A stretch of DNA of 32,000 nucleotides from Vibrio vulnificus CMCP6. Its GTDB lineage: Bacteria > Pseudomonadota > Gammaproteobacteria > Enterobacterales > Vibrionaceae. A program made the position numbers and the translations under genes. The stretch is taken from assembly GCF_000039765.1 (NCBI RefSeq), contig NC_004459.3, forward strand, positions 1,200,001 through 1,232,000, written 5' to 3'. The notes under the pieces are model-generated. The model was not told the DNA's origin. It saw only the letters and a program-made list of their open reading frames with translations, and did not search any database. Below are positions 3,907 to 28,836 of the stretch, in pieces (position 1 is the stretch's first letter; each line of letters starts with the position of its first letter).

Positions 3907-4179
3907 ATGAACAAGACCCAATTAATCGACTTTATCGCAGAGAAAGCAGACCTATCTAAAGCACAAGCGAAAGCTGCTCTTGAAGCTACTCTTAACGGTG
4001 TGACTGACGCACTAAAAGAGGGTGACCAGGTTCAACTAATTGGTTTTGGTACATTCAAAGTAAACCACCGCGCAGCACGTACTGGCCGTAACCCTAAAAC
4101 GGGTGATGAGATCCAAATCGCTGCAGCAAACGTTCCTGCATTCGTAGCAGGTAAAGCACTGAAAGAATCAGTAAACTAA
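3907..4179 (+). CDS. hupA: DNA-binding protein HU, alpha subunit
   Basis: 90-aa product [13 protein letters not shown]...[41 protein letters not shown] is canonical HU. The ATG at 3907 is preceded by GAGAAGGGAAA. The ORF-track start at 3874 adds 11 residues not found in HU proteins. Confidence 0.9.
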
Positions 4180-4186
4180 TTGCTCT

Positions 4187-4216
4187 GCACCGGAGATTCT
4201 CTCCGGTGCCTTTTTT
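4187..4216 (+). terminator. rho-independent terminator of hupA
   Basis: GCACCGGAG-attct-CTCCGGTGC followed by CTTTTTT. Confidence 0.8.
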
Positions 4217-4231
4217 AAATTGCCTGACATC

Positions 4232-4924
4232 ATGAAAAAACGACTGCTCTCCCTGACTGCCCTCCTAATCCTTGCTGGTTGTTCTTCAGCACCAAGACCA
4301 AACCTGGAACAATTCACTCATTTCTCTGGTGGCCAGACGATGGGCGATGCGACGAGTTTCTATTGGGTGACGGACAAACTGACAGGGCCGCATAAAGCGT
4401 CGGACTATGTTTTTTCTGGTGATTACGGTTGGTATCAAAGCGAATATCGCTGGGATGAAGGCGCATTACGAGAGTTGATTCGAGAAGGTGAGCAGCTTGA
4501 TAGCAAGTTAGGCTTAGTACCTTATCGAATCCACGTTCGATTTAATGTTGAAGGGGATGCGGTTTATCAGCAGTATCGCCTTAACGGGAAAGTTCTCCCT
4601 ATCCAAAAAGAACAGTTGCAGCGCTACCAATACGAAGCGGATGCATTGGTTAAAGAGACCAAGCAGCAAGCGCGCGAGGGCTTGGAGTTGGTCCAAGGGT
4701 ATTGGGATGGGGAAACGTTTGAAACCTGTAGTGGAGAGGAATATTCGAAACTTGAGTTTAATCAGACCCTCCCAGGATTTGTGGTTAACCGCTTGGCCAG
4801 TGTCGACAGCTATGTGGCGTTTTTAGGCAAAAAATCTTCACGTCGTTTGGAAGTAGAAACGTTACTGTTATTAGATGAAGACGATCGAGACTGCGTGGAA
4901 AAGCCCGTGTTGCTTGAAGAGTAA
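4232..4924 (+). CDS. yjaH: DUF1481 family lipoprotein YjaH-like
   Basis: From the ATG at 4232 the product starts MKKRLLSLTALLILAGCSS, a lipoprotein signal with an LAGC lipobox. Its position right after hupA matches E. coli yjaH. The ORF-track TTG at 4220 sits inside the hupA terminator tail. Confidence 0.7.
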   Translation: MKKRLLSLTALLILAGCSSAPRPNLEQFTHFSGGQTMGDATSFYWVTDKLTGPHKASDYVFSGDYGWYQSEYRWDEGALRELIREGEQLDSKLGLVPYRIHVRFNVEGDAVYQQYRLNGKVLPIQKEQLQRYQYEADALVKETKQQAREGLELVQGYWDGETFETCSGEEYSKLEFNQTLPGFVVNRLASVDSYVAFLGKKSSRRLEVETLLLLDEDDRDCVEKPVLLEE

Positions 4925-4951
4925 GACTTACTCCGTTAGACGAATGAAAAG

Positions 4952-4981
4952 ACAAAAGGCGCAAAATGCGCCTTTTGTTTT
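4952..4981. terminator. bidirectional rho-independent terminator (yjaH on +, purD on -)
   Basis: ACAAAAGGCGCA-aaa-TGCGCCTTTTGT is a 12-bp perfect stem with A/T runs on both sides. It lies between convergent genes. Confidence 0.8.
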
Positions 4982-5002
4982 CTTTGCCAACTGATGTTGT
5001 TG

Positions 5003-6292
5003 TTATTTTTGTTGCTCGCGAGCGATAGCACGGTAGCCAATATCGTTGCGGTGGAACATGCCTTCCCAACGGATCTGTTTTGCCAGCTCGTACGCGCGTT
5101 GCTGCGCTTCTGATACGCTGTTGCCCAGTGCGGTGGCACAAAGAACACGACCACCGTTTGTTACGATATCGCCCTCTTTATTTTCAGTGCCAGCGTGGAA
5201 GACTTTTTCGCCTTCAATTTCAACTTGAGGTAGGCCAGAGATCACGTCGCCCTTGTTGTACGCCGCTGGATAGCCACCCGCTGCAAGCACAATACCGATC
5301 GATGCGCGAGGGTCCCACTTGGACTCGACTTGATCCAGTTTCTTGTCGATGGCCGCGAGGCACAATTCCACAAGATCCGATTCCATGCGCATCATGATAG
5401 GTTGCGTTTCTGGGTCACCAAAGCGGCAGTTGTACTCGATCACTTTTGGTGTGCCATCTTTGTCAATCATCAAGCCGGCATAGAGGAAGCCCGTGTATGG
5501 GTTACCTTCGGCTGCCATGCCACGCACGGTAGGGAAGATCACCTCTTGCATAACACGGTTATGGATCTCTGGTGTCACCACTGGTGCGGGTGAGTAAGCG
5601 CCCATACCGCCGGTGTTTGGACCGGTGTCTTTATCGCCGACACGCTTGTGGTCTTGGCTGGTGGCCATTGGCAGTACGTTTTCGCCATCCACCATCACGA
5701 TGAAGCTCGCTTCTTCGCCATCAAGGAACTCTTCGATCACCACGCGGCTGCCTGCCTCGCCAAAGGCGTTGCCTGCGAGCATGTCTTTGATTGCTTCTTC
5801 CGCTTCTTCCAGCGTCATCGCGACAATCACGCCTTTACCTGCCGCAAGGCCATCTGCTTTCACCACGATTGGCGCGCCTTGTTCACGTACATAGGCCAGT
5901 GCTGGCTCGATGTCCGTAAAGTTTGCGTACGCCGCCGTCGGGATTTGGTGACGAGCAAGGAAGTCTTTGGTAAATGCTTTAGAGCCTTCAAGTTGCGCAG
6001 CCGCTTGGGTAGGGCCAAAAATTGGCAGGCCTGCTTCATAAAACGCATCAACGACACCCAGTACGAGTGGCACTTCAGGACCGACGATGGTCAGTTCAAT
6101 GGCTTTCTCTTTAGCAAACGCCACTAAACCGGCAATGTCTTCAACGGCGATGTTGACGTTTTCTAGCTTAGGCTCAAGTGCGGTACCAGCGTTACCCGGC
6201 GCGACGAAGATTGTCTCCACATTGGGGTTTTGCGCGGCTTTCCAACCTAGAGCGTGTTCACGACCGCCGGAACCAATTATCAATACATTCAT
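5003..6292 (-). CDS. purD: phosphoribosylamine--glycine ligase
   Basis: The 429-aa product from the ATG at 6292 starts MNVLIIGSGGREHALGWK, as PurD does, and carries ATP-grasp motifs. The 15-codon ORF-track extension to 6337 runs through the purH-purD intergenic hairpin. Confidence 0.95.
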   Translation of the reverse strand: MNVLIIGSGGREHALGWKAAQNPNVETIFVAPGNAGTALEPKLENVNIAVEDIAGLVAFAKEKAIELTIVGPEVPLVLGVVDAFYEAGLPIFGPTQAAAQLEGSKAFTKDFLARHQIPTAAYANFTDIEPALAYVREQGAPIVVKADGLAAGKGVIVAMTLEEAEEAIKDMLAGNAFGEAGSRVVIEEFLDGEEASFIVMVDGENVLPMATSQDHKRVGDKDTGPNTGGMGAYSPAPVVTPEIHNRVMQEVIFPTVRGMAAEGNPYTGFLYAGLMIDKDGTPKVIEYNCRFGDPETQPIMMRMESDLVELCLAAIDKKLDQVESKWDPRASIGIVLAAGGYPAAYNKGDVISGLPQVEIEGEKVFHAGTENKEGDIVTNGGRVLCATALGNSVSEAQQRAYELAKQIRWEGMFHRNDIGYRAIAREQQK

Positions 6293-6310
6293 CTCATCAT
6301 CCTCAAATCT

Positions 6311-6341
6311 TGCAAAAAGAGGTGCCTGATAAGGCACCTCT
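6311..6341 (-). terminator. terminator-like hairpin between purH and purD (candidate intra-operon attenuator or 3'-end stabiliser)
   Basis: On the minus strand: AGAGGTGCC-ttatca-GGCACCTCT followed by TTTTGC. This 9-bp perfect stem lies in the 57-nt purH-purD spacer. Confidence 0.45.
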
Positions 6342-6349
6342 GATAAAAA

Positions 6350-7942
6350 CTAGTGGCGGAAGTGGCGCATGCCCGTAAAAATCATCGCCATACCGTGTTC
6401 ATCTGCGGCGGCAATCACTTCGTCATCACGCATCGAACCACCAGGCTGAATTACACATTTAATGCCAGCTTCTGCTGCTGCATCAATACCGTCACGGAAT
6501 GGGAAGAAGGCATCAGAGGCCATGACGCAACCCTCAACTTGTAGGCCTTCGTCTGCCGCTTTAATGCCAGCAATCTTCGCTGAGTAGACGCGGCTCATTT
6601 GGCCAGCGCCCACACCAATAGTCATATCGCCTTTAGAGTAAACAATCGCGTTCGATTTTACGTACTTCGCCACTTTCCAGCAGAATAACGCGTCTTTGAG
6701 TTCTTCTTCCGTTGGCTGGCGCTTAGACACGACTTTAAGGTCATCTAGGCTGACCATGCCTTGGTCGCGATCTTGAACCAGTAGGCCGCCGTTCACGCGT
6801 TTCACGTCAAAGCCCGTTGTCTTCGTTGTCCACTCGCCACACTCAAGCAGACGAACGTTTTTCTTCGCTGCCACCACTTCCATCGCTTCAGCCGATACCG
6901 AAGGGGCAATGATGACTTCAACAAATTGGCGCTCAACAATAGCGGTGGCCGTTTCTGCGTCTAGCTCTTGGTTGAAGGCGATGATGCCGCCAAATGCGGA
7001 TGTCGGATCGGTTTGGTAAGCGCGGTTGTACGCCTCTAGGATGTCTTTACCTAGCGCTACGCCACATGGGTTAGCGTGCTTAACAATGACACAAGCTGGC
7101 TCATTAAACTCTTTCACACACTCAAGCGCTGCGTCCGTGTCTGCGATGTTGTTGTAAGAAAGGGCTTTGCCTTGGATTTGGCGAGCGGTAGCAACCGATG
7201 CTTCTTGTGGGTTGGCTTCAACATAGAAAGCGGCTGCTTGGTGGCTGTTCTCACCGTAGCGCATGTCTTGTTTTTTGATGAACTGCTGGTTGAAAGTGCG
7301 CGGGAATTTGCTCTCTTCATCACCTTCTTTGTTCTCTCCGTATGAAGGAACCATAGTGCCGAAGTAGTTCGCGATCATGCCGTCGTAAGCAGCGGTGTGT
7401 TCAAAGGCTGCGATAGCGAGGTCGAAACGCGTTTCTAGAGTAAGCGACGTGTCGTTGGCGTCCATTTCTGTGATGACGCGATGGTAGTCTGAAGCGTTGA
7501 CAACGATAGTCACGTCTTTATGGTTTTTCGCCGCAGAGCGAACCATGGTTGGGCCACCGATGTCGATGTTTTCAACCGCGTCAGCCAGTGTGCAGCCTTC
7601 TTTAGCGACAGTTTCTGCGAATGGGTAGAGGTTAACCACCACCATGTCGATCGGGTTAATGCCGTGTTTTGCCATGACCTCATCGTCTTGGCCACGACGA
7701 CCGAGCACACCACCGTGAACTTTCGGGTGAAGCGTTTTAACGCGACCGTCCATCATTTCTGGGAAACCAGTGTAGTCAGAGACTTCAGTGACTGCGATGC
7801 CTTGCTCTGCAAGTAAACGAGCAGTACCGCCAGTCGATAAGATATCGACACCGCGCTCAGCAAGAGCTTGCGCAAACTCAACAATACCGGTTTTGTCTGA
7901 TACGCTGATAAGCGCACGGCGAATAGGACGAGCGTTGTTCAT
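6350..7942 (-). CDS. purH: bifunctional AICAR formyltransferase / IMP cyclohydrolase
   Basis: 530 aa. [27 protein letters not shown]...[13 protein letters not shown] (MGS-like IMPCH domain) plus a C-terminal AICARFT domain ending FTGMRHFRH. Confidence 0.95.
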
Positions 7943-8212: not shown

Positions 8213-8611
8213 ATGTTTCAGATAGGTGAATTGGCGAAACGTTGTGGTGTGAGCGCGGATACGCTGCGTTTTTATGAAAAAAATGCCCTGATCAAGCCAG
8301 CTGGTCGCAGTGAATCCGGTTACCGTCTTTACAATTACGAAAACCAGAAGCAGGTGGGGTTCATTCTAAAAGCCAAAGAACTCGGTTTGAGTTTGGAAGA
8401 GATCAAAGAGCTGCTGGAGATCAAACTCGAAGCAACAGAACACAGTTGCGCCGAGGTGAAAGCGATCACTTCTGCTAAGTTGGCACTCATCGATGAGAAA
8501 ATTGCCGAATTAAACAAAATTCGTCGGGCACTGAAAAAAATTAACGACGCGTGCTGTGGCCATGTGGAAGACAATGCCAGCCACTGTTCCATTCTTGCTG
8601 CTTTAGAATAA
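8213..8611 (+). CDS. zntR: MerR-family Zn(II)-responsive transcriptional regulator
   Basis: 132 aa. It has a MerR HTH (IGELAKRCGVSADTLRFYEKNALI), a coiled-coil dimerisation helix, and the C-terminal metal ligands CCGH...HC typical of ZntR. Confidence 0.8.
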   Translation: MFQIGELAKRCGVSADTLRFYEKNALIKPAGRSESGYRLYNYENQKQVGFILKAKELGLSLEEIKELLEIKLEATEHSCAEVKAITSAKLALIDEKIAELNKIRRALKKINDACCGHVEDNASHCSILAALE

Positions 8612-11993: not shown

Positions 11994-12881
11994 CTAGCCT
12001 TGCTTGCGACCAGAGATGCGACACCATTCACTTTGCTCAACGATTGGATCAATGTGAAGCTCATCACGGTAATAGTTGGCCACATCTTCTGCTTGGGTAT
12101 CCAATACGCCCGACATCGCTAATTGGCCATTTGGTTTGACAAGCCCCTTGATGATCGAAGAAAGCTCACGCAGTGGTGCCGCCAAAATGTTTGCGACAAC
12201 AACGTCAGCAAGCAGACCTTCCGGTTGATCTTGAGGCAGATAAACATCCAGTTGATCGGCAACGCCATTACGTTGGGCGTTGTCTTTCGAAGCGAGAAGT
12301 GCTTGAGGATCAATGTCGATCCCGATGACTTTTTCTGCACCCAGTTTGATCGCTGCGATCGCCAAGATGCCAGAGCCACAACCAAAATCGATAACGGTTT
12401 TACCCGAAAGATCAAGGCTCTCTAGCCATTCAAGACACAGTGCTGTGGTTGGGTGAGTACCCGTACCAAACGCAAGGCCAGGATCCAGCATCACGTTCAC
12501 TGCGGTGGGATCGGGAATGTCACGCCAGCTTGGGCAGATCCACAAACGCTGACCAAATTTCATTGGGTGGAAGTTGTCCATCCACTCGCGTTCCCAATCT
12601 TTATCTTCTAGCTGCTCAATTTTGTAAGCAAAGCCTTCAGCCAGCATGTTGCTTGCTTTGATTTGCGACATGATGAGCTGAGTGTCCGCCTCTGCGTCGT
12701 ACAGTGCCAGGACATCCGTATCACCCCAAAGACGCGTTTCACCAGGCAGTGGCTCGAAGACAGGGGTATCGTGCGCATCTAGGAAAGTCACCGATAGCGC
12801 GCCAGTCTCTTCCATAAGCATATCGCCGATAAGCTCAGCGTTTTCGTTGGTCGCATTGAGTTTGATTTGAATCCAAGGCAT
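11994..12881 (-). CDS. prmA: ribosomal protein L11 methyltransferase
   Basis: 295 aa. It has the PrmA N-terminus [11 protein letters not shown] and the SAM-binding motif [15 protein letters not shown]. Confidence 0.95.
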
Positions 12882-12954
12882 GAGTGCATACTCTTAATGT
12901 TTAAATTTGGCGCAGAGTTTAGCAGACTTTCCCTGCAAACGAAAAAATCCGCTC

Positions 12955-12982
12955 AATGAAAAATGCCCACCGAAGTGGGCAT
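12955..12982 (-). terminator. rho-independent terminator of accBC
   Basis: On the minus strand: ATGCCCAC-TTCG-GTGGGCAT followed by TTTTC. It lies 20 nt past the accC stop. Confidence 0.8.
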
Positions 12983-13001
12983 GGTAACCAGTGCGCTGCG
13001 C

Positions 13002-14348
13002 TTAGTGCTGAAGGCCGAGTTTTTTCTCTAGGTAGTGGATGTTGGCACCACCGTGCTGGAAGTTTTCATCGTTCATGATGCTCACTTGCAGCGGAATGTT
13101 GGTCTTGATGCCTTCAATGAACATCTCACCCAGGGCGTTCTTCATACGTGCAATCGCAACGTCACGGTTTTCACCGTAAGTGATCAGCTTACCGATCATT
13201 GAGTCGTAGTGCGGTGGCACGGTGTAGCCGCTGTAGATGTGCGATTCCCAACGAACACCCATACCGCCTGGTGCGTGGAAGCGTTCAATCTTACCTGGAG
13301 ACGGTAGGAAGCGTTCTGGGTCTTCCGCGTTGATACGACATTCAATCGCATGGCCACGGATCTTAATGTCGTTCTGCGTGAATGACAGAGGCTGACCCGC
13401 CGCAACGCGCAGCTGTTCTTTGATCAGGTCAACACCAGTCACCATTTCAGTCACTGGGTGCTCAACCTGAATACGGGTGTTCATTTCAATGAAGTAGAAC
13501 TCACCGTTTTCGTAGAGGAATTCGAATGTACCTGCACCGCGGTAACCGATCTCTAGACATGCACGAGTACAACGTTCGCCGATGTACTTACGCATCTCTT
13601 CAGTAATACCTGGAGCTGGTGCTTCTTCAACAACCTTTTGGTGACGACGCTGCATTGAACAATCACGCTCACCTAGGTGGATAGCGCCGCCTTGGCCATC
13701 TGCAATCACTTGAACTTCAACGTGACGTGGGTTTTCTAGGAATTTCTCCATGTAAACCATGTCGTTGTTGAATGCTGCTTTTGCTTCTGCACGCGTCATG
13801 GCAATTGCTTGAACGAGGTCTGCTTCTTTACGAACCACACGCATACCACGACCACCACCGCCACCAGAGGCTTTGATGATCACTGGGTAACCAATACGTT
13901 TCGCGTGTGCTCGGTTTTTCACTTCGTCGTTATCAAGTGGACCATCAGAACCAGGTACACATGGAACGCCCGCTTTTTTCATTGCAGTGATAGCCGATAC
14001 TTTGTCACCCATCATGCGGATGGTGTCCGCTTTTGGACCCACAAAGATGAACCCGCTACGTTCTACTTGTTCAGCAAAGTCTGCGTTTTCAGACAAGAAA
14101 CCGTAACCTGGGTGGATCGCCACCGCGCCAGTCACTTCTGCTGCTGAAATAATGCGAGGAATGTTCAGATAGCTGTCGATACCACGAGCAGGACCGATAC
14201 ACACAGTTTCATCTGCCAGCAGTACGTGTTTTAGATCGCGATCGGCGGTGGAGTGCACGGCAACGGTTTTGATGCCGAGTTCTTTACACGCGCGAAGGAT
14301 ACGAAGTGCGATTTCACCTCGGTTCGCGATGACTACTTTATCTAGCAT
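13002..14348 (-). CDS. accC: acetyl-CoA carboxylase, biotin carboxylase subunit
   Basis: 448 aa, near-colinear with E. coli AccC as I recall it ([33 protein letters not shown]...[12 protein letters not shown]). Confidence 0.97.
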
Positions 14349-21730: not shown

Positions 21731-21760
21731 GAAACCTCTCCCGTATGGAGAGGTTTTTTA
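21731..21760 (+). terminator. rho-independent terminator of the MFS gene
   Basis: AAACCTCTCC-cgtat-GGAGAGGTTT followed by TTTATT. It overlaps the ORF-track start of the next gene (21745), which argues against that start. Confidence 0.85.
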
Positions 21761-21783
21761 TTGAGCAAGAGAAAGGATGTCAC

Positions 21784-24700
21784 ATGCAAGGATGGTTGGT
21801 GATACCCGTATCGTTAGCGTATTTAGGAGTGTTGTTCCTCATCGCTTGGTATGGAGATAGGCAAAAAAATTGGTTGGCACGTTGGCGGCCTTGGATCTAT
21901 AGCCTATCGATTGCGGTTTACTGTACCTCTTGGACGTTTTACGGCACGGTGGGGCAGGCGAGCAATAATCCTTGGTCTTTCTTGCCGATCTACATTGCAC
22001 CGATTCTGGTCTTTACTCTTGGTTGGCGCGTCTTGGCGCGGCTCATTCTCGTTGCCAAGCGCGAGCACATTACCTCGATTGCGGACTTCATTGCTGCGCG
22101 CTATGGCAAATCGCAAGGGCTTGCGGTGGTGGTGACTTTAATCGCTGTGGTGGGAATTTTGCCCTATATCGCCCTGCAATTGCGTGGCATTACGATGGGG
22201 CTTGAGATCATCGCGCCAGATCTCTCAAGCCGTTTTGGCTATCAAGACTCAGGCGTTTCTTGGTTTGTGGTGGGGGCACTGGCGATATTCACCATGCTGT
22301 TTGGCACCCGTCATATCGACAACACCGAGCATCACCGCGGCATGATGATGGCGATAGCTTTTGAATCGATCGTTAAGCTGGTGGCGTTTCTCGTGGTGGG
22401 AATGTTTATCGTCTGGCTGGCGATGCAGCATCAAGAGGTCGATCTCAGCCGTGTTGCCGCCGCCACGTACCAATCGCCCAATATCGCGACCTTGCTGATC
22501 CACACCTTGCTGACCATGCTGGCGATTGTCTGTTTGCCGCGTCAGTTTCACACCATGGTGGTGGAAAATGAACGCGCGCAAGATCTGCATACCGCGCGCT
22601 GGCTCTTCCCGCTGTATTTGATTTTGATGGGCATTTTTGTGCTGCCGATTGCGTGGGCGGGGCAAAGTTTGCTCTCTGGCAGCCCTGCCGATACTTATGT
22701 GATCAGCTTGCCGATGGCGTTTGGCGCCAATGACATTGCTTTATTGGCCTTCCTTGGTGGCACGTCCGCTGCCAGTGGCATGGTGATTGTGTCCACCATC
22801 GCGCTCGCCATTATGGTCTCCAACGATTTGGTGATGCCATTGCTACTGCGCCGCATGCGGCTGTCTAACCGTAATCACCACCATTTTTCAGGTTTACTGC
22901 TGCGTATTCGTCGAGCGTTAATTCTGGTGTTGTTAATTGGCGCATGGGGTTTCTATCAAGCGCTGGACGCAATTCATTCGCTCTCAGCAATTGGCTTTCT
23001 CTCATTCGCTGCGATCACCCAGTTTGCTCCAGCTTTGATTGGCGGCATGTACTGGCGCCAAGGTAACCGCAAAGGGGTGTATGTTGGGCTGGCGGCGGGT
23101 TTTACTTTATGGCTGATTACATTGATGAGCCAAACCGACATGTTGGCCGGCGATGCGCAGAGCAACTTGCTGATTTGGCTGATTACACCACCAGAGGTAT
23201 TAGGGGAGATGGGCGTGAAGGCCTCTGACTGGGGGATGTTCCTCAGTGTCACCGTCAATGCGCTCTGCTTCCTTGTCGTCTCGATGCTAACGCGTCCAAG
23301 CCTAAGTGAGCGCTTACAATCGGCGTCGTTTGTTGGTACGCCATTGCCCGAAAATGAAAACATCAGCCTCTATCAAAGCCGCGTCACCGTGGGTGAGTTG
23401 GAGATGCTGGCCTCACGCTTTGTTGGGCGCAATCGGGTGAAAAATGCCTTTGCTCACTATTGGTCGCAGCAAAGAGAAACCTTATTGCCGAACCAACAAG
23501 CTCCCTCGACCTTGATTCGTCATACTGAGCGGGTATTGGCGGGGGTGTTTGGTGCTTCGTCGGCGAAGTTAGTCCTTACTTCGGCGCTGCAAGGCAGAAA
23601 CATGCAATTGGAGGAAGTCGCAACCATCGTGGATGAAGCGTCTGAGTTGTATGATTTTAGCCGAGGCTTATTGCAAGGGGCGATTGAGCATATTGGTCAA
23701 GGCATTGCCGTGGTGGACAAACAGCTTCGGCTGGTGGCATGGAACCAACGCTATTTGGAGCTGTTTGAGTTTCCGCCTGGGCTGATACAAGTGGGCCGGC
23801 CGATTGCCGATGTGATTCGCCATAATGCCGAGCAGGGTTTATGTGGCCCGGGAGACCCAGAAGATCATGTGCGTCGCCGAGTCTATCATTTGGAACAAGG
23901 CTCGCGGCATACCTCGTCACGCATTCGCCCCGATGGACGCGTGATTGAAGTGCAAGGTAACCCCATGCCCGGCGGCGGCTTTGTGATGAGCTTTACCGAC
24001 ATCACTGTGTTCCGTGATGCAGAACAAGCATTGAAAGAAGCCAATGAAACGCTCGAAGAACGTGTTCATTTACGTACAAGAGAGCTTGAGCAGTTGAATA
24101 AACAGCTGGTGGTGGCAACGCAGCGTTCGGAGCTGGAATCACGCTCTAAATCGCGTTTTTTGGCTGCCGTGAGTCACGACTTGATGCAACCACTCAACGC
24201 AGCGCGTCTGTTTGCCTCATCACTCTCGGAAGTGGCCAAGGACGATGAAAGCCGCAAGCTGGCGCATCACATTGAAAGTGCCCTCGGGGCTGCGGAAGAT
24301 TTGATTGGTGATTTGTTGGATATCTCGCGACTGGAATCGGGTAAGTTGGATGTACACGTGCACGGTTTTGCCATCAATGATGTGTTATCGAATTTGAATG
24401 CGGAATTTAGCGCACTGGCCAAACAGCAAGGCATCGAGTTCTGCATGATCCCGTCGTCACTCAATGTCACGTCTGATCCAAAATTGCTGCGCCGTGTGGT
24501 GCAGAACTTCCTGACCAATGCGTTTCGATATAGCCCTAATGGCAAGGTAGCGCTTGGGGTGCGCCGAGTCGGTGAGCGGGTGCGTATCGACGTATGGGAT
24601 AACGGGATGGGCATTGAAGAAGATAAGCAGCAAGAGATCTTCGAAGAGTTTAGCCGTGGTACCCAAGTGCGCTCCGATCAAGGATTGGGTTTAGGGCTCG

Positions 24701-25215
24701 CGATTTCCAAAGGCATCGCGCAAGTGTTGGGGCATGAGATTTCGATGCGTTCATGGCATGGCCGCGGCAGTGTGTTTTCTATTACTCTGGATCGTGCTCA
24801 GCAAGTGCAAGCGTTGCCGACGGCAGAGCCTGCCCAAGCGCACTCTGAGTTAAGTCACTTACGTATTTTGTGTGTCGATAATGAGCCCGATATTTTGGTT
24901 GGCATGGAGAATCTGCTGGCGCGTTGGGGGTGTGAAGTGAAAACCGCTACTGACATTGTGCAAAGTTTGAAAGCACTGGACGGTGGTTGGCATCCGGATG
25001 TGATTTTCTCCGACTATCGTCTTGATGAAGGTCGCACAGGTTTAGAAGTGCTCCAGCAATGTAAGCTTAGATTAGGCAGCCGTTTTGAAGGGGTGATCAT
25101 CAGCGCCGATCGCACCGATGACATGATGCAAGGCATCAAAGCCAATGGTTTTAGCTTTATTGCCAAACCCGTTAAACCGCTCAAGCTGAGAGCGGTGTTG
25201 AACCGAGTGGCGTGA
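21784..25215 (+). CDS. crbS: hybrid sensor histidine kinase with an N-terminal sodium:solute-symporter (SSS/SLC5)-like transporter domain, then PAS, HisKA, HATPase and a C-terminal receiver (CrbS/CbrA-type)
   Basis: The 1143-aa product from the ATG at 21784 has AAAGGA 6 nt upstream. About 13 TM helices carry SSS motifs, followed by a PAS region (GIAVVDKQLRLVAWNQRYLELF). Next come the H-box FLAAVSHDLMQPLNA, the N/G boxes (DNGMGI, GLGLGLAI), and REC (ILCVDNEPDIL...SDYRLDEG). The architecture and the nearby acs match the V. cholerae acetate-switch kinase CrbS. Confidence 0.85.
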   Translation: MQGWLVIPVSLAYLGVLFLIAWYGDRQKNWLARWRPWIYSLSIAVYCTSWTFYGTVGQASNNPWSFLPIYIAPILVFTLGWRVLARLILVAKREHITSIADFIAARYGKSQGLAVVVTLIAVVGILPYIALQLRGITMGLEIIAPDLSSRFGYQDSGVSWFVVGALAIFTMLFGTRHIDNTEHHRGMMMAIAFESIVKLVAFLVVGMFIVWLAMQHQEVDLSRVAAATYQSPNIATLLIHTLLTMLAIVCLPRQFHTMVVENERAQDLHTARWLFPLYLILMGIFVLPIAWAGQSLLSGSPADTYVISLPMAFGANDIALLAFLGGTSAASGMVIVSTIALAIMVSNDLVMPLLLRRMRLSNRNHHHFSGLLLRIRRALILVLLIGAWGFYQALDAIHSLSAIGFLSFAAITQFAPALIGGMYWRQGNRKGVYVGLAAGFTLWLITLMSQTDMLAGDAQSNLLIWLITPPEVLGEMGVKASDWGMFLSVTVNALCFLVVSMLTRPSLSERLQSASFVGTPLPENENISLYQSRVTVGELEMLASRFVGRNRVKNAFAHYWSQQRETLLPNQQAPSTLIRHTERVLAGVFGASSAKLVLTSALQGRNMQLEEVATIVDEASELYDFSRGLLQGAIEHIGQGIAVVDKQLRLVAWNQRYLELFEFPPGLIQVGRPIADVIRHNAEQGLCGPGDPEDHVRRRVYHLEQGSRHTSSRIRPDGRVIEVQGNPMPGGGFVMSFTDITVFRDAEQALKEANETLEERVHLRTRELEQLNKQLVVATQRSELESRSKSRFLAAVSHDLMQPLNAARLFASSLSEVAKDDESRKLAHHIESALGAAEDLIGDLLDISRLESGKLDVHVHGFAINDVLSNLNAEFSALAKQQGIEFCMIPSSLNVTSDPKLLRRVVQNFLTNAFRYSPNGKVALGVRRVGERVRIDVWDNGMGIEEDKQQEIFEEFSRGTQVRSDQGLGLGLAISKGIAQVLGHEISMRSWHGRGSVFSITLDRAQQVQALPTAEPAQAHSELSHLRILCVDNEPDILVGMENLLARWGCEVKTATDIVQSLKALDGGWHPDVIFSDYRLDEGRTGLEVLQQCKLRLGSRFEGVIISADRTDDMMQGIKANGFSFIAKPVKPLKLRAVLNRVA

Positions 25216-25230
25216 GGTGCCTTCTCCAAA

Positions 25231-25267
25231 AAGAGCTGCCATGGTTGGTATTAAAATGGCAGCTCTT
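25231..25267. terminator. hairpin terminator shared by crbS (+) and the AT-rich islet genes (-)
   Basis: AAGAGCTGCCAT-(13 nt)-ATGGCAGCTCTT is a 12-bp perfect stem. The T-run is better on the minus strand (CTCTTTTTGG) than on the plus strand (CTCTTTGTG). Confidence 0.65.
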
Positions 25268-25324
25268 TGTGAATGTCTTGGCTAAGAAAAAAGTTGTGTT
25301 GATACGCCAATAATGATCACCTGC

Positions 25325-25786
25325 TTAATTCTCTATATATCCTGACTCTAATGCACCATGAAGGTCGCAGATAGTATGAACTTCATACCCATCATGATCT
25401 TTTTTCTTAGCATCAAATATAAAATATTTCTCTTTTGAATTAATGTCGCAAGTGAGATTGGATAAATTTTCTGACATGAAAGTAAATATGCTATATCCAG
25501 GTAAATATGAACGCCATAAGTATTTGTATTCAAGGTCACGTTTTATGCTTAATGATGTGCTGACCATTTTGGGGTCAAAAATGCTTGGTGTCTTTATTGT
25601 TGAAATACTGACAGCTTCAAAAAAGAACTCACCATTTTGATTAGTATATGCCTTTAATTCTTTTGTGTCATTCAGAGCACTGATTTCAAGGGTGACTTCA
25701 ATATTTGCCGCAAGGATACCATGATTAAAAATTCTCCCGTGAATTTTTGGTGTTAAGTCATATGTTTTTTGTTTAAATATGTCCAT
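25325..25786 (-). CDS. islet paralogue C: small protein of unknown function (no signal peptide)
   Basis: This 153-aa ORF stays open in ~30% GC DNA. It aligns with paralogues A and B at DIFKQKTYDLTPKIHGR, NGEFFFE, YLWRSYL and NLSNLTCDI. Its only two Cys are at the homologous positions. Confidence 0.7.
   Translation of the reverse strand: MDIFKQKTYDLTPKIHGRIFNHGILAANIEVTLEISALNDTKELKAYTNQNGEFFFEAVSISTIKTPSIFDPKMVSTSLSIKRDLEYKYLWRSYLPGYSIFTFMSENLSNLTCDINSKEKYFIFDAKKKDHDGYEVHTICDLHGALESGYIEN
25727..25748. repeat. inverted repeat inside paralogue C at the position homologous to the A/B palindrome
   Basis: AAAAATTC-tcccgt-GAATTTTT has 8-bp perfect arms. It encodes K-I-H-G-R-I-F, which aligns within two codons of the SPEISGH site. 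Confidence 0.6.
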
Positions 25787-25846
25787 GACGTAGACCTGGT
25801 AGGAGACGGTTAAGAAAAAAGTATTATTAAATGATGTATTGCCTTT

Positions 25847-26326
25847 TTAATCCTTTTGCCTTTTTTCTCTACGCTTATATCCATTAATTTTACATCTACT
25901 TAGTACCATCAAATCGACACCATGTGGAACAACAGGGTTTTTAAAATAGTATTGATATTGATTAGAGTTTATCTCGCATTTTGTGTTTTTAAGATTGTCA
26001 ACAATAAGATCAAGTGGCTCATCGTAATCTAGTATTGAATGCCATAGATATATTCTCTCTTCTTCATTTACTAGGTAAATACCAAAGTAAGAGTAAGCCT
26101 GATTTAACGAGAATTTCTTCAACCATTGAGAATGAATCATGGGTTCAAAATGAAAATATCCATTCAGATCAGTTTTGGTTTTATCTTCATATCGATGTTT
26201 TAAAAAACTACCCTCAAGATAAATCTCTTTATTTGCTAAGATTTTTCCATCCTGAGTAAGATGTCCAGAGATCTCTGGACTTAAGATGTAATCATTCTTT
26301 TTTAAGAAACCCAAAATATTTATCAT
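25847..26326 (-). CDS. islet paralogue B: small protein of unknown function (signal peptide truncated)
   Basis: 159 aa from the ATG at 26326, or 164 aa from the ORF-track TTG at 26341. By my hand alignment, 101 of 143 residues are identical to paralogue A. A TAA at 26356-26354 closes the frame upstream. Confidence 0.7.
   Translation of the reverse strand: MINILGFLKKNDYILSPEISGHLTQDGKILANKEIYLEGSFLKHRYEDKTKTDLNGYFHFEPMIHSQWLKKFSLNQAYSYFGIYLVNEEERIYLWHSILDYDEPLDLIVDNLKNTKCEINSNQYQYYFKNPVVPHGVDLMVLSRCKINGYKRREKRQKD
26263..26280. repeat. 18-bp perfect palindrome inside paralogue B (identical copy at 26802-26819 in paralogue A)
   Basis: GTCCAGAGATCTCTGGAC equals its own reverse complement. It encodes S-P-E-I-S-G-H. 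Confidence 0.9.
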
Positions 26327-26385
26327 GTTATTTATACTCAATATTGGTGAGATTTAAATTATGATCGCTTTATATGAGACGTTTT

Positions 26386-26931
26386 TTAAATACTCTCGTA
26401 TTTTTCTCTACGCTTATATCCCTTAATTTCACATCTGCTTAGTAGCATCAAATCAACGCCATTAGGTACTACAGGGTTTTTAAAATAGTAGAGATAATCA
26501 GGTGTTCTGATGTTGCAATTAAGGTTATTTAAGTTGTTTTTAATGAAATTAAATGGTTGTTCGTATCCCAATATGGATTCCCATAGATATGTCTTTTCAT
26601 TTTCAATTAAAATGTAAATACCAATATAAGAATAAGCTTGATTTAACGGGGATTTCTTCAACCATTGAGAATGAATCATGGGATCAAAATGAAAATACCC
26701 ATTCAGATTAGTTTTGGTTTTATCGTTATATCGATGTTTTAAGAACCCGCCTTCAAGATAAACGTCTCTATTCGCAAATGCTTGTCCGTCTTGAGTCAGG
26801 TGTCCAGAGATCTCTGGACTTAAGACATACTCATTTTTTTTAAATAAATCAAAAATGCTCAACATATTACCTTTGCTTACTATTGGGAAAGAAACTAAGA
26901 GCAGGGTTAATATTATCTTAGTGATTTTCAT
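26386..26931 (-). CDS. islet paralogue A: exported small protein of unknown function (Sec signal peptide)
   Basis: 181 aa. The N-terminus MKITKIILTLLLVSFPIVSKG is a classic signal peptide. The following pattern ISGHLTQDG....A..DVYLEG.........TKTNLNGYFHF resembles carboxypeptidase-regulatory-like / transthyretin-like beta-sandwich domains. The protein has only two Cys, with 27 residues between them. Confidence 0.75.
   Translation of the reverse strand: MKITKIILTLLLVSFPIVSKGNMLSIFDLFKKNEYVLSPEISGHLTQDGQAFANRDVYLEGGFLKHRYNDKTKTNLNGYFHFDPMIHSQWLKKSPLNQAYSYIGIYILIENEKTYLWESILGYEQPFNFIKNNLNNLNCNIRTPDYLYYFKNPVVPNGVDLMLLSRCEIKGYKRREKYESI
26802..26819. repeat. 18-bp perfect palindrome inside paralogue A (identical to 26263-26280)
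   Basis: GTCCAGAGATCTCTGGAC lies 539 bp from the other copy. Confidence 0.9.
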
Positions 26932-27053
26932 TTTTAGTCCGAAAACAAATGGTGACTAATATATAGGATGTTTTTTTCTTGATAAGAAAGAATGTTTTTT
27001 TTGAGATTAATATCGTGTTTGTCGTGTAATTAATAAGTTTGATACTTTGTGCA

Positions 27054-27091
27054 CAACAAAAAGCCGATGCAGTTGCATCGGCTTTGCTTTT
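27054..27091 (-). terminator. rho-independent terminator of the DUF4212/symporter operon
   Basis: On the minus strand: AAAGCCGATGCA-ac-TGCATCGGCTTT followed by TTGTTGTG. It lies about 45 nt past the symporter stop. Confidence 0.8.
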
Positions 27092-27132: not shown

Positions 27133-28836
27133 TCAATGGTCGTGAGCTGCGCCAGCGCCTTTCGGGTAGCGGATAGACTCAACCATTTCTTGTACATCTG
27201 ACGGTACTTCGGCAGTGAACTTGTTCACGACAATTGCTACCACAAAGTTCAGACACATACCTAGTGTACCAATGCCCTCAGGGCTGATACCGAACAACCA
27301 GTTATCCGGTGTGCTCGCAGCTGGGTTAATGAACTTGAAGTACACGATGTAAGCCGCAGTAAAGGTAATACCTGCCAACATACCCGTGATAGCGCCTTCT
27401 TTGTTCATCTTCTTATAGAAGATACCCAAGATAATCGCAGGGAAGAAGGATGAGGCTGCCAATCCGAAGGCGAATGCCACAACCTGTGCTACAAAGCCTG
27501 GAGGGTTAATACCCAAGTAGCCCGCACCGACGATGGCAATCGCTGACGCAATCCGCGCGGCCATTAACTCCTGTTTATCGGTCATATTGGGCCTAAAGCC
27601 TTTCTTCAACAAGTCATGCGAAATGGCGGTTGAGATAACCAATAGTAGGCCTGCTGCGGTAGAGAGTGCTGCTGCCAGACCACCCGCTGCCAATAGTGCC
27701 ACAACCCAGTTTGGTAGTTTTGCTAGTTCTGGAGAAGCCAGTACGATGATATCGCGGTTGATCTTCATCTCGTTGCGCTCATCGCCAGAGTAGAACATCT
27801 TGCCATCGCCATTCTTGTCTTCCCAAGCCACTAGGCCAGTGCTTTCCCAGTTTTTGTACCAGCTCGGTGCTTCTGTGCCTGCGACACCTTGCATGTCTGG
27901 ACCATTGATGGTGTCGATCATGTTAACGCGTGCAAACGCTGCCACAGCCGGTGCGGTGGTATAAAGAATCGCGATGAACACCAATGCCCAACCAGCAGAG
28001 ATACGCGCATCAGATACTTTCGGTACGGTAAAGAAGCGAATAATAACATGTGGAAGACCGGCAGTACCTACCATGAGCGCCGCACAGATGAAGAAGACGT
28101 CAACCATGCTCTTCGATCCATCGGTATAGGCGGTGAAACCGAGCTCCTGTGTTAGACCATCCAGTTTGGTGAGTAGATACTCATCGCTACCTGCCATGGT
28201 CGAACCGAAGCCAAGCTGAGGGACAGGGTTACCAGTCATCATCAAGGAAGTGAAGATCGCTGGAACCATGAAGGCAAAGATAAGCACACAGTATTGCGCT
28301 ACCTGCGTATAGGTGATGCCCTTCATGCCGCCCATAACCGCGTAGAAGAACACGATCGCCATACCGATGATGATACCCATGTTGATGTCAACTTCGAGGA
28401 AGCGTGCGAATACCACACCCACACCACGCATTTGACCAGCAACGTAAGTAAACGATACGAAAATAGCACAGAATACCGCAACCAAACGCGCCGTTCTTGA
28501 GTAGTAACGGTCGCCGATGAAATCTGGCACGGTGAACTTACCAAACTTACGTAGATAAGGGGCTAAACAAAGGGCGAGAAGTACGTAGCCACCGGTCCAA
28601 CCCATCAGGTATACCGTACCATCGTAGCCGATGAACGAGATAATACCTGCCATAGAGATAAATGATGCCGCAGACATCCAGTCCGCTGCGGTTGCCATGC
28701 CGTTGGCGACTGGGTGAACACCACCGCCAGCAACATAGAATTCACTGGTTGATCCCGCACGGGCCCAGATTGCGATGCCGATATACAGAGCAAAAGTGAT
28801 ACCGACAAGAATAAACGTCCAAGTTTGAATATCCAT
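27133..28836 (-). CDS. sodium:solute symporter family transporter, cation/acetate symporter (ActP)-like
   Basis: 567 aa with multiple TM helices. ActP-family blocks are present: FYVAGGGV...NGMATAADWMSAASFISMAGI, YDGTVYLMGWTGGY and GTAGLPHVIIRFFTV. The gene lies 12 nt downstream of the DUF4212 gene. Confidence 0.85.
   Translation of the reverse strand: MDIQTWTFILVGITFALYIGIAIWARAGSTSEFYVAGGGVHPVANGMATAADWMSAASFISMAGIISFIGYDGTVYLMGWTGGYVLLALCLAPYLRKFGKFTVPDFIGDRYYSRTARLVAVFCAIFVSFTYVAGQMRGVGVVFARFLEVDINMGIIIGMAIVFFYAVMGGMKGITYTQVAQYCVLIFAFMVPAIFTSLMMTGNPVPQLGFGSTMAGSDEYLLTKLDGLTQELGFTAYTDGSKSMVDVFFICAALMVGTAGLPHVIIRFFTVPKVSDARISAGWALVFIAILYTTAPAVAAFARVNMIDTINGPDMQGVAGTEAPSWYKNWESTGLVAWEDKNGDGKMFYSGDERNEMKINRDIIVLASPELAKLPNWVVALLAAGGLAAALSTAAGLLLVISTAISHDLLKKGFRPNMTDKQELMAARIASAIAIVGAGYLGINPPGFVAQVVAFAFGLAASSFFPAIILGIFYKKMNKEGAITGMLAGITFTAAYIVYFKFINPAASTPDNWLFGISPEGIGTLGMCLNFVVAIVVNKFTAEVPSDVQEMVESIRYPKGAGAAHDH

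Follow-up and report, generated by a model that had tools for sequence, protein, structure and literature searches.

Arrays of orphan immunity genes were reportedly described by Kirchberger and colleagues in 2017 at the auxiliary clusters of V. cholerae's type VI secretion system (T6SS), and Russell and colleagues are said to have defined in 2013 the phospholipase effectors Tle1 to Tle5 together with their Tli immunity proteins. The described systems closest to the one presented here are two pairs from V. parahaemolyticus. Tchelet et al. (2023) found two Lipase_3 proteins in the T6SS2 secretome of this species, T2LipA (VPBB_RS22630; 43.88 kDa, accessory) and T2LipB (VP0626; 41.06 kDa, core) (PMC9980498). 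In strain BB22OP, prey lacking T2LipA and the upstream gene VPBB_RS22625 was sensitive to its parent, depending on both hcp2 and the effector, and VPBB_RS22625 alone, on a plasmid, restored the protection of the prey from T2LipA (PMC9980498). T2LipB and its upstream neighbour VP0625 (21.8 kDa) are homologous to the T2LipA pair (36.6% and 27.7% identity, respectively); the immunity protein was given no family or fold in that paper (PMC9980498). Our analysis concerns a window of 32,000 nucleotides (the whole stretch of DNA that was analysed) of Vibrio vulnificus CMCP6 (contig NC_004459.3, positions 1,200,001 to 1,232,000) and, within it, an AT-rich islet of 1.8 kb, with crbS on one side and actP on the other, that carries three genes of the Pfam family DUF6795, here called A, B, and C. 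With a probability of roughly 0.78 we consider this islet to be an effector-less allele of a two-gene T6SS lipase effector/immunity cassette, holding three orphan immunity homologues. The features of the islet and its two flanking genes are the following, in coordinates of the window:

21745..25215, plus strand: crbS-like hybrid sensor kinase with an SSF-type N-terminal domain; core flank, outside the cassette
25227..25271, no strand: hairpin common to the converging crbS and DUF6795 genes, right boundary of the islet (inverted repeat)
25269..25324, no strand: 56-nt filler in the position of the lipase gene (homology break versus V. navarrensis)
25325..25786, minus strand: copy C, diverged DUF6795, 153 aa, its start being the exact mature N-terminus (open reading frame, Pfam)
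25787..25846, minus strand: signal-peptide remnant of C, degraded, in frame, without start codon, directly after the stop of B
25847..26341, minus strand: copy B, DUF6795, 164 aa, TTG start, without signal peptide (open reading frame, Pfam)
26342..26385, minus strand: A-B spacer with a truncated signal-peptide remnant of B (in-frame stop upstream)
26386..26931, minus strand: copy A, DUF6795, 181 aa, with intact Sec-type signal peptide (open reading frame, Pfam, AlphaFold2)
26932..27048, minus strand: upstream leader of the cassette, about 117 nt, conserved with DUF6795-lipase cassettes of other species and sites
27060..27085, no strand: actP terminator hairpin, scoring on both strands, left boundary of the islet (terminator and inverted-repeat search)
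27133..28836, minus strand: actP-like SSF symporter; core flank, outside the cassette

The three minus-strand open reading frames (ORFs) between the crbS-like kinase and the actP-like symporter are present as the first-pass annotation of this DNA had listed them, B being 164 aa long from its TTG start. The G+C (GC) content of the islet is 0.312 versus 0.497 for the remaining window, running at 0.29 to 0.33 over 25250-27050 and at about 0.50 on both sides; the earlier counts of 18/60 and 28/60, given as evidence of a GC collapse, are exact. That these are real genes rather than noise also holds: none of 1,000 shuffles of the islet reached a stop-free stretch of at least 150 codons (the longest had 144). 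The proteins are paralogues and C is far more diverged, A and B being 67.5% identical over 160 aa and A and C 32.5% over 123 aa (E = 6e-15). There are exactly two cysteines per protein, with 27 (A), 27 (B), and 26 (C) residues between them, as noted before. The statement that the proteins belong to no recognised family is not supported: all three exceed the gathering cutoff of PF20598 (DUF6795), set at 27.4 bits, with 40.8 (A), 39.7 (B), and 41.5 bits (C), covering profile positions 1 to 101 or 102 of 103 at E values of about 1e-10 (2.9e-10 for A). The family is small, with 152 clusters at E <= 1e-3 in a profile search of 1.84 billion representative proteins, some of these clusters being large multi-repeat proteins that match over a short stretch only. 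Its named members come from Vibrio and Photobacterium, under database names such as hypothetical, DUF6795, DUF4198, 'carboxypeptidase regulatory-like', and 'conserved exported'; we found no mention of DUF6795 in the literature searched. Conserved family-wide are G43, G78, F80, F82, W117, L134, L137, C139, and C167. The AlphaFold2 model of A (pLDDT, the predicted local distance difference test, 75; core above 85) is an all-beta sandwich over residues 33-150, for which Foldseek returned only generic sandwiches from the PDB, with C2 domains best, TTR-52 at rank 40, and query TM-scores (TMq) of about 0.3-0.37. Of the transthyretin-like sandwich proposed earlier, the beta-sandwich thus stands and the specific fold match is not diagnostic (TM-score about 0.35; a DUF4198 match for B only, weak and below cutoff at E = 0.036).

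Outside the window, DUF6795 genes keep a constant company. The gene immediately 5' of a Lipase_3 gene belongs to this family in V. cincinnatiensis, V. metschnikovii, V. navarrensis, V. vulnificus, V. parahaemolyticus, Pseudoalteromonas, and Marinobacter. For metagenomes we scanned with the lipase alignment, the DUF6795 alignment being too variable for a pattern scan, and obtained 80 loci; 63 loci were testable (lipase in the family at E < 1e-50), using hidden Markov models (HMMs) built from our own alignments. A DUF6795 ORF stands directly upstream on the same strand in 61 of these 63, in 9 of them as 2-3 tandem copies. The number of upstream copies in the metagenomic loci is one in 53, two in 8, and three in 1, with an extra downstream copy in two; among more distant metagenomic Lipase_3 proteins the partner is missing in 5 of 6. 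The identities of the two partners co-vary (Mantel test, 0/999 permutations), and DUF6795 diverges faster, at a median identity of 31% where the lipases are 50-70% identical. Pairing is also type-specific: genes of the A/B type abut lipases of 394-397 aa, and those of the C type abut lipases of 375 aa. The lipase family itself is broad, with 1,211 database matches of about 388 aa, 45-55% identical over their full length, from marine Gammaproteobacteria, and all annotated just as 'lipase family protein'. Its members have no signal peptide; they carry a GHSLGG nucleophile elbow within the Lipase_3 domain, and invariant Asp and His as candidate residues. Conservation extends to the N-terminus (M..LTPKLAS) and to a helical domain of about 110 aa at the C-terminus. 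The core matches fungal class-3 lipases and plant phospholipase A1 (PLA1) in sequence as well as in fold.

The same junction in related vibrios shows where such a lipase would have stood. The window DNA shares 95.8-96.4% identity with V. floridensis IRLE0018 (locus L010); for two V. vulnificus genomes the value is 92.8-94.9%, and for V. navarrensis about 78-84%. In V. navarrensis the junction reads actP - DUF6795 (189 aa) - DUF6795 (178 aa, with signal peptide) - Lipase_3 (375 aa) - crbS, and in V. vulnificus CP060047 it reads actP - DUF6795 (181 aa) - Lipase_3 (394 aa) - crbS. Against V. navarrensis, the homology of the window reaches the stop codon of C (25325) and restarts at 25268, one base past the lipase stop, so that 56 nt (25269-25324) replace a Lipase_3 gene of 1,128 bp; no lipase remnant was found in this filler. 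The window genes are not upstream of any lipase, and homologues of A/B and of C are, at the same junction elsewhere; as the lipase is absent, the former are orphan homologues and form no complete pair. The same filler occurs in V. floridensis and in V. vulnificus L001, and the lipase-less allele is therefore shared by the three, rather than being a private deletion or a recent insertion in the window strain. Both of these relatives have two copies at the junction, one of the A/B type and one of the C type; since A and B of the window both align to their single A/B-type copy, A and B go back to a tandem duplication of about 540 bp. There is, in addition, a V. vulnificus strain with three copies, whose P0008 and P0019 bear the locus tags I7684_18525 and I7684_18535. 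On the actP side, similarity to the cassettes of other species stops at 27048: the leader is 71-74% identical to that of V. metschnikovii (L003) and V. cincinnatiensis (L006) up to that position and no further. It holds a sigma-70-like site, TTATCA-16-TATATT at 26985-26958 (a consensus match only). On the other side, the hairpin 25227-25271 is conserved after the lipase stop in L013.

Within the vulnificus clade, synonymous divergence (dS) is 0.13-0.62 for the islet genes and 0.06-0.26 for actP and crbS; a higher dS in the islet than in its flanks points to allelic replacement. The view of the islet as accessory and compositionally foreign is supported, and the actP-crbS junction of the V. vulnificus/floridensis/navarrensis group is a site of effector-immunity allele exchange and effector loss. 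A is 88% identical to V. vulnificus P0001/P0002 and is closest to other orphan alleles. Of the three, B comes nearest to alleles that are linked to a lipase: V. vulnificus L018 (82%) and V. cincinnatiensis L002 (80%), both with about 87% identity at the DNA level. For C, the identity to the partner found with the 375-aa lipases in V. navarrensis and V. cincinnatiensis is 66-68%. In the array, A and B are of the type paired with T2LipA-like lipases of 394-397 aa, and C is of the type paired with those of 375 aa. The first-pass annotation had remarked on none of the following: the loss of signal peptides in B and C, the lipase at the junction in sister taxa, the A/B duplication, and the occurrence of the lipase-less allele across species. 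The pair has further sites in V. cincinnatiensis (chromosomes 1 and 2), V. metschnikovii, V. parahaemolyticus (chromosome 2), V. navarrensis (chromosome 2), Pseudoalteromonas, and Marinobacter, where its two genes overlap or are separated by gaps of 2 nt; a scan of genome contigs with the Vibrio alignment gave 3 loci, too few for a cross-species map of presence and absence.

The neighbourhood of the pair in other bacteria connects it to contact-dependent antagonism and to the T6SS. Among 145 neighbour ORFs from about 30 metagenomic loci, VgrG (5 ORFs) is tied for most frequent and Hcp (3 ORFs) is among the commonest. One metagenomic locus (L058) has the order ClpV - DUF6795 - lipase - VgrG - DUF4123 adaptor, and three others (L049, L051, and L087) have DUF6795 - lipase - ShlB - Hcp - VgrG. 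The pair of Pseudoalteromonas and Marinobacter adjoins DUF6531-Rhs toxins with Zeta toxin, colicin-DNase/WHH, and EndoU tips, and the same Rhs loci contain Imm49- or ankyrin-type immunity ORFs and a Peptidase_M15_4 pair. The link to the published V. parahaemolyticus pair comes from several properties. The lipase of 397 aa in this species is 66% identical to the junction lipase, lies on contigs of the size of chromosome 2, and has a DUF6795 gene overlapping its start; one member of its cluster has a monoisotopic mass of 43.879 kDa (published for T2LipA: 43.88), and VP0625 with its 21.8 kDa has the size of a DUF6795 protein. The accessions AGB12846 and WP_015313641 are not among the accession lists of the V. 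parahaemolyticus lipase and DUF6795 clusters. From gene order, species, size, and mass we strongly infer that DUF6795 is the family of T2LipA-i (VPBB_RS22625). According to Church et al. (2016), T6SS2 is present in all V. vulnificus strains studied (PMC5087951). The module VP14460-VP14465, from a 2026 Journal of Biological Chemistry (JBC) paper, was also considered and rejected; it is a DNase module and unrelated. As an observation apart, the pair in L049, L051, and L087 stands between a repeat protein of more than 900 aa (DUF5649) and a ShlB/TpsB-type transporter, so that genes of two-partner secretion and T6SS are mixed at these loci.

The window and the T2Lip pairs compare as follows. Alike are the Lipase_3 effectors of about 44 and 41 kDa, without signal peptide and encoded outside the T6SS cluster; the immunity gene as the upstream neighbour; and the existence of two diverged paralogous types, the published immunity proteins being 27.7% identical and A and C here 28-32%. 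The window differs in having three immunity homologues and no lipase, two of the three being without export signals. The mechanism that we propose is the following. A complete cassette consists of one to three DUF6795 genes followed by a class-3 lipase gene of about 375-400 aa, with stop and start often overlapping. The lipase would be a T6SS cargo effector, as was shown for V. parahaemolyticus T2LipA, and, going by other Tle-type lipases, may attack membrane lipids from the periplasm of the recipient. DUF6795 would be the cognate immunity protein: a beta-sandwich that is exported by Sec, in some species as a lipoprotein, and whose single conserved cysteine pair presumably stabilises it by a disulfide; its export signals, this cysteine pair, and the example of other Tli proteins suggest that it binds and blocks the incoming lipase in the periplasm. 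With its signal peptide and its leader, A may still protect the cell against relatives that carry the lipase at the same locus.

This raises the question of which copies can reach the periplasm. The N-terminus of A, MKITKIILTLLLVSFPIVSKG followed by NM, is a typical Sec signal with n, h, and c regions, a judgement made by eye and from alignments with full-length homologues and with members bearing a lipobox. Nearly all full-length DUF6795 members have such a signal sequence, those of V. harveyi and V. parahaemolyticus with a lipobox (LLSTGC). In the window, A is the only copy that keeps it. The frame upstream of B (...II*ISPILSINNM) is homologous to FPIVSKGNM of A and is broken by a stop; the frame upstream of C, which runs from the stop codon of B, reads KGNTSFNNTFFLTVSYQVYV-M and is shortened and without a start codon. 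The latter stretch, KGNTSFNNTFFLTVSYQVYV, has its homologue in the 178-aa proteins of V. navarrensis, namely their signal peptide (...LSLTFSYQVYA-MD; P0020). Forms without signal peptide are found in V. vulnificus as well (P0008, P0011, P0018, and P0019). A is thus the only copy likely to reach the periplasm, and B and C, having lost their export signals, are probably unable to act there. A is plausibly a functional immunity protein of the periplasm, directed against relatives armed with the lipase; B and C are either recent relics or have some cytosolic role.

One feature of the N-termini deserves separate mention. Even DUF6795 subfamilies that are only about 20-25% identical have in common a conserved methionine right behind the signal peptide (consensus MFxxFKK; contexts GNM/L, YAM/D, NADM/F, NSEM/L, and GSDM/F). 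In the window it lies at 26869-26871 (Met23 of A) and at 25784-25786 (the start of C), and many DUF6795 database entries begin at it. This residue could be structural or an internal start codon. In the second case DUF6795 might be dual-localised, with a cytosolic isoform that arms or stabilises the lipase before its loading into the T6SS, and B and C would not be relics but dedicated cytosolic forms or a recombination reservoir for switching immunity specificity, the stretch between actP and crbS being a hotspot of effector swapping; we hold this to be distinctly unlikely. If dual localisation were true, the signal-peptide-less B and C would be functional.

Selection was estimated from pairwise ratios of nonsynonymous to synonymous substitutions (dN/dS, Nei-Gojobori). 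These amount to 0.15-0.42 for DUF6795 pairs, compared to 0.00-0.03 for actP and 0.015 for crbS. A, B, and C are constrained and fast-evolving proteins, the pairwise values being silent on constraint after the loss of the lipase. Several points weigh against the reading of the islet as an effector-less allele with orphan immunity genes. The values for the orphan copies (A versus L001 0.39, C versus L010 0.19, and B versus L018 0.21) do not stand clearly apart from those of lipase-linked pairs (0.15-0.30), and hence cannot show that the orphans are still under selection. B and C are without signal peptides and the C copy of V. vulnificus L001 (P0023) has a C-terminal frameshift, because of which part of the array appears to be decaying. 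The window contains no T6SS genes. Foldseek found no known immunity-protein fold for A in the PDB (best TM-score about 0.35). The T2LipB/VP0625 pair, homologous to the T2LipA pair, showed no immunity phenotype (PMC9980498), and the link to the validated immunity protein is drawn from gene order, species, size, and mass. In V. parahaemolyticus (L025/L026; clusters of P0216 and P0398-P0400) we observed the DUF6795 gene on 442, 401, and 212 contigs in three start variants, and the lipase often split, into products of 181 aa (165 contigs) and 191 aa (245 contigs); decay of the effector with the partner gene kept seems to be common there too.

Taken to its end, such decay would make all three genes non-functional relics of a lipase deletion, with too little time elapsed for stop codons to build up. 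The missing lipase gene, the lost signal-peptide starts of B and C, the frameshifted V. vulnificus C copy, the split lipase genes of V. parahaemolyticus, and dN/dS values 10-30 times above those of the flanking genes all suit this view. We nevertheless consider it unlikely: the lipase-less allele with its filler is common to V. floridensis, V. vulnificus, and the window at an islet dS of 0.13-0.45, yet the ORFs have stayed open in DNA of 31% GC; dN/dS is well under 1; A retains both its signal peptide and the conserved leader; and A and B have been duplicated rather than eroded. DUF6795 could otherwise be mainly a helper of the lipase, i.e. a cytosolic chaperone or activator or an adaptor for secretion, modelled on the Tli protein of E. 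cloacae, which would leave the window copies without a role. Translational coupling to the lipase (overlaps or 2-nt gaps) would fit a helper, as would the methionine conserved directly after the signal peptide, at which many entries start, the open frames of the signal-peptide-less B and C, and the precedent of a dual-role Tli (bioRxiv 10.1101/2023.03.28.534661). Signal peptides or lipoboxes together with the conserved cysteine pair indicate a periplasmic protein, however; the upstream gene alone on a plasmid protected prey from T2LipA (PMC9980498); and extra, effector-less copies beside complete pairs are a better fit to immunity than to a chaperone. Moreover, a helper role is compatible with immunity, as E. 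cloacae Tli has both, and as the main function of DUF6795 it seems to us very unlikely.

Finally, the islet could have no relation to the T6SS; its products could then be a periplasmic inhibitor or decoy of another enzyme such as lysozyme or a protease, part of an anti-phage defence, or an auxiliary factor in acetate metabolism. Its position within the acetate-switch locus could be read that way, as could the integrase and phage-like genes that adjoin the cassette of V. metschnikovii, and a beta-sandwich is a generic fold. Against this stands the lipase partner, seen in 61 of 63 loci. It is with the lipase, and not with actP or crbS, that the family travels, and V. cincinnatiensis, V. metschnikovii, V. 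parahaemolyticus, Pseudoalteromonas, and Marinobacter carry it at different genomic sites. In addition, terminator hairpins insulate the islet from both flanking genes. The PADLOC-DB HMMs returned nothing at E <= 1 for A, B, C, or the partner lipases, and NCBIfam gave no meaningful match for the window proteins; the anti-phage idea was therefore dropped, and we regard the whole alternative as extremely improbable. The evidence thus favours orphan T6SS immunity genes, which the first-pass annotation had put forward as a guess. The outcome that it had named as refuting, placement of the proteins in a family of known function, has come about in part: they belong to DUF6795, a domain of unknown function, and a probable homologue in V. 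parahaemolyticus has been shown by experiment to be an immunity protein of T6SS2 (PMC9980498).

Both arrays of orphan immunity genes and pairs of lipase and immunity protein were already well established, and the islet is no new kind of system. With the V. cholerae orphan arrays it shares tandem, diverged, effector-less immunity genes, alleles that vary at one fixed site, and low GC with signs of allelic replacement. The V. cholerae arrays stand behind hcp-vgrG-effector modules, whereas the site in the window is flanked by two acetate-switch housekeeping genes and has no structural gene of a T6SS in its vicinity, and their immunity family is another than DUF6795. 'Orphan immunity' is discussed in PMC7702109 and PMC9711863. 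The E. cloacae Tle/Tli pair resembles the present one in its fungal-type, class-3-like lipase, in an immunity protein exported to the periplasm, and in internal starts after the signal that could yield a cytosolic form. Jensen et al. (2023) reported that a cytosolic form of Tli is needed to arm Tle, the periplasmic and cytosolic roles being separate (bioRxiv 10.1101/2023.03.28.534661). Tli, however, is an all-helical lipoprotein of six ankyrin repeats, unlike the beta-sandwich of DUF6795 (AlphaFold2 model of A), and A, B, and C gave no ankyrin (Ank) match in Pfam. Tle is larger, with its lipase domain at about 172-472 (PMC11470151, Nat Commun 2024), whereas the DUF6795-linked lipase is free-standing at about 390 aa with a helical domain at its C-terminus; sequence and fold searches with this lipase yielded no Tle chain. 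E. cloacae Tle/Tli is an analogue only. The effectors Tle1-Tle5 are likewise GxSxG lipases acting in the periplasm, with periplasmic immunity proteins often encoded in tandem beside the effector; the DUF6795-linked lipase resembles fungal class-3 lipases and plant PLA1 and not the solved Tle1 or Tle4 structures. V. cholerae TseL (Tle2; immunity protein TsiV1) is also a Lipase_3 protein, the shared domain being the only point compared.

New are the assignment of DUF6795 to a lipase-partner/immunity role, the near-obligate linkage of DUF6795 and lipase in marine Gammaproteobacteria, and the actP-crbS junction as a site of effector swapping and loss in the vulnificus clade. DUF6795 can be given a working annotation as partner and probable immunity protein of a widespread T6SS class-3 lipase effector of marine bacteria. 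The exchange site at actP-crbS bears on strain compatibility and competition in V. vulnificus-group populations of oysters and estuaries.

The remainder of the window contains acs, an RNase_T exonuclease, a DUF294 protein, an MFS transporter, DUF4212 next to actP, MarC, a LuxR-type response regulator, and dsbD; with these genes around crbS and actP, the name acetate-switch locus is a fair label. Both bounding hairpins (25227-25271 and 27060-27085) were recovered. As reported before, the window has no tRNA genes and no long flanking repeats; of the 20 long ORFs scanned apart from the islet, crbS, and actP, none is an integrase or transposase. A perfect palindrome of 18 nt, GTCCAGAGATCTCTGGAC (with AGATCT inside it; it codes for SPEISGH), occurs at 26263-26280 and at 26802-26819, identical in A and B where the flanking DNA is only 78% identical. 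It is also found in L001 and L013-15 and is missing from other alleles. We rejected it as a recombination or regulatory site; since most alleles are without it, it is probably a codon-level coincidence.

Elsewhere the cassette is met in varied surroundings. At the chromosome 2 site of V. cincinnatiensis (L006, between a panF-like SSF gene and a cellulase gene), a 38-nt fragment just downstream of the 375-aa lipase (8271-8308) is 84% identical to the 3' end of crbS (window 25180-25217), and a crbS-type terminator hairpin is present as well; the cassette thus seems to have reached this site from an actP-crbS junction. A Na+/solute symporter gene has the cassette at its 3' side in the window (actP, 27133-28836), in L006 (the panF-like SSF gene, 4132-5553), and in L025 (an SDF gene, 5819-7123); in L107 an SDF gene (12231-13535) lies about 2 kb downstream on the opposite strand. 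This adjacency could be a coincidence or a preferred insertion context. In V. metschnikovii (L003 4552-12516; also L004 and L005) DUF6795 and a 395-aa lipase come directly after a tyrosine integrase and are followed by an acidic protein of 195 aa (signal peptide, no Pfam match) and then by phage-like genes (Dam, DUF2303, YfdP), a context that could be a mobile vehicle for the cassette. On chromosome 1 of V. cincinnatiensis (L002 1989-5202), a DDE_3 transposase, a DUF900 alpha/beta-hydrolase of 406 aa, and a domainless ORF of 279 aa stand directly upstream of the pair; this may be a second hydrolase effector/immunity pair. The 90%-identity cluster of the 398-aa lipase P0217 lists many DUF6795 members of 182-189 aa, probably a clustering artefact from a fused or read-through ORF. 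Lastly, the vulnificus clade has a second, apparently conserved pair on the small chromosome, consisting of DUF6795 (174-177 aa) and a 387-aa lipase (L107 8471-10164 on V. navarrensis chromosome 2; P0205/P0224 in V. floridensis), which the window organism probably also carries, outside the window.

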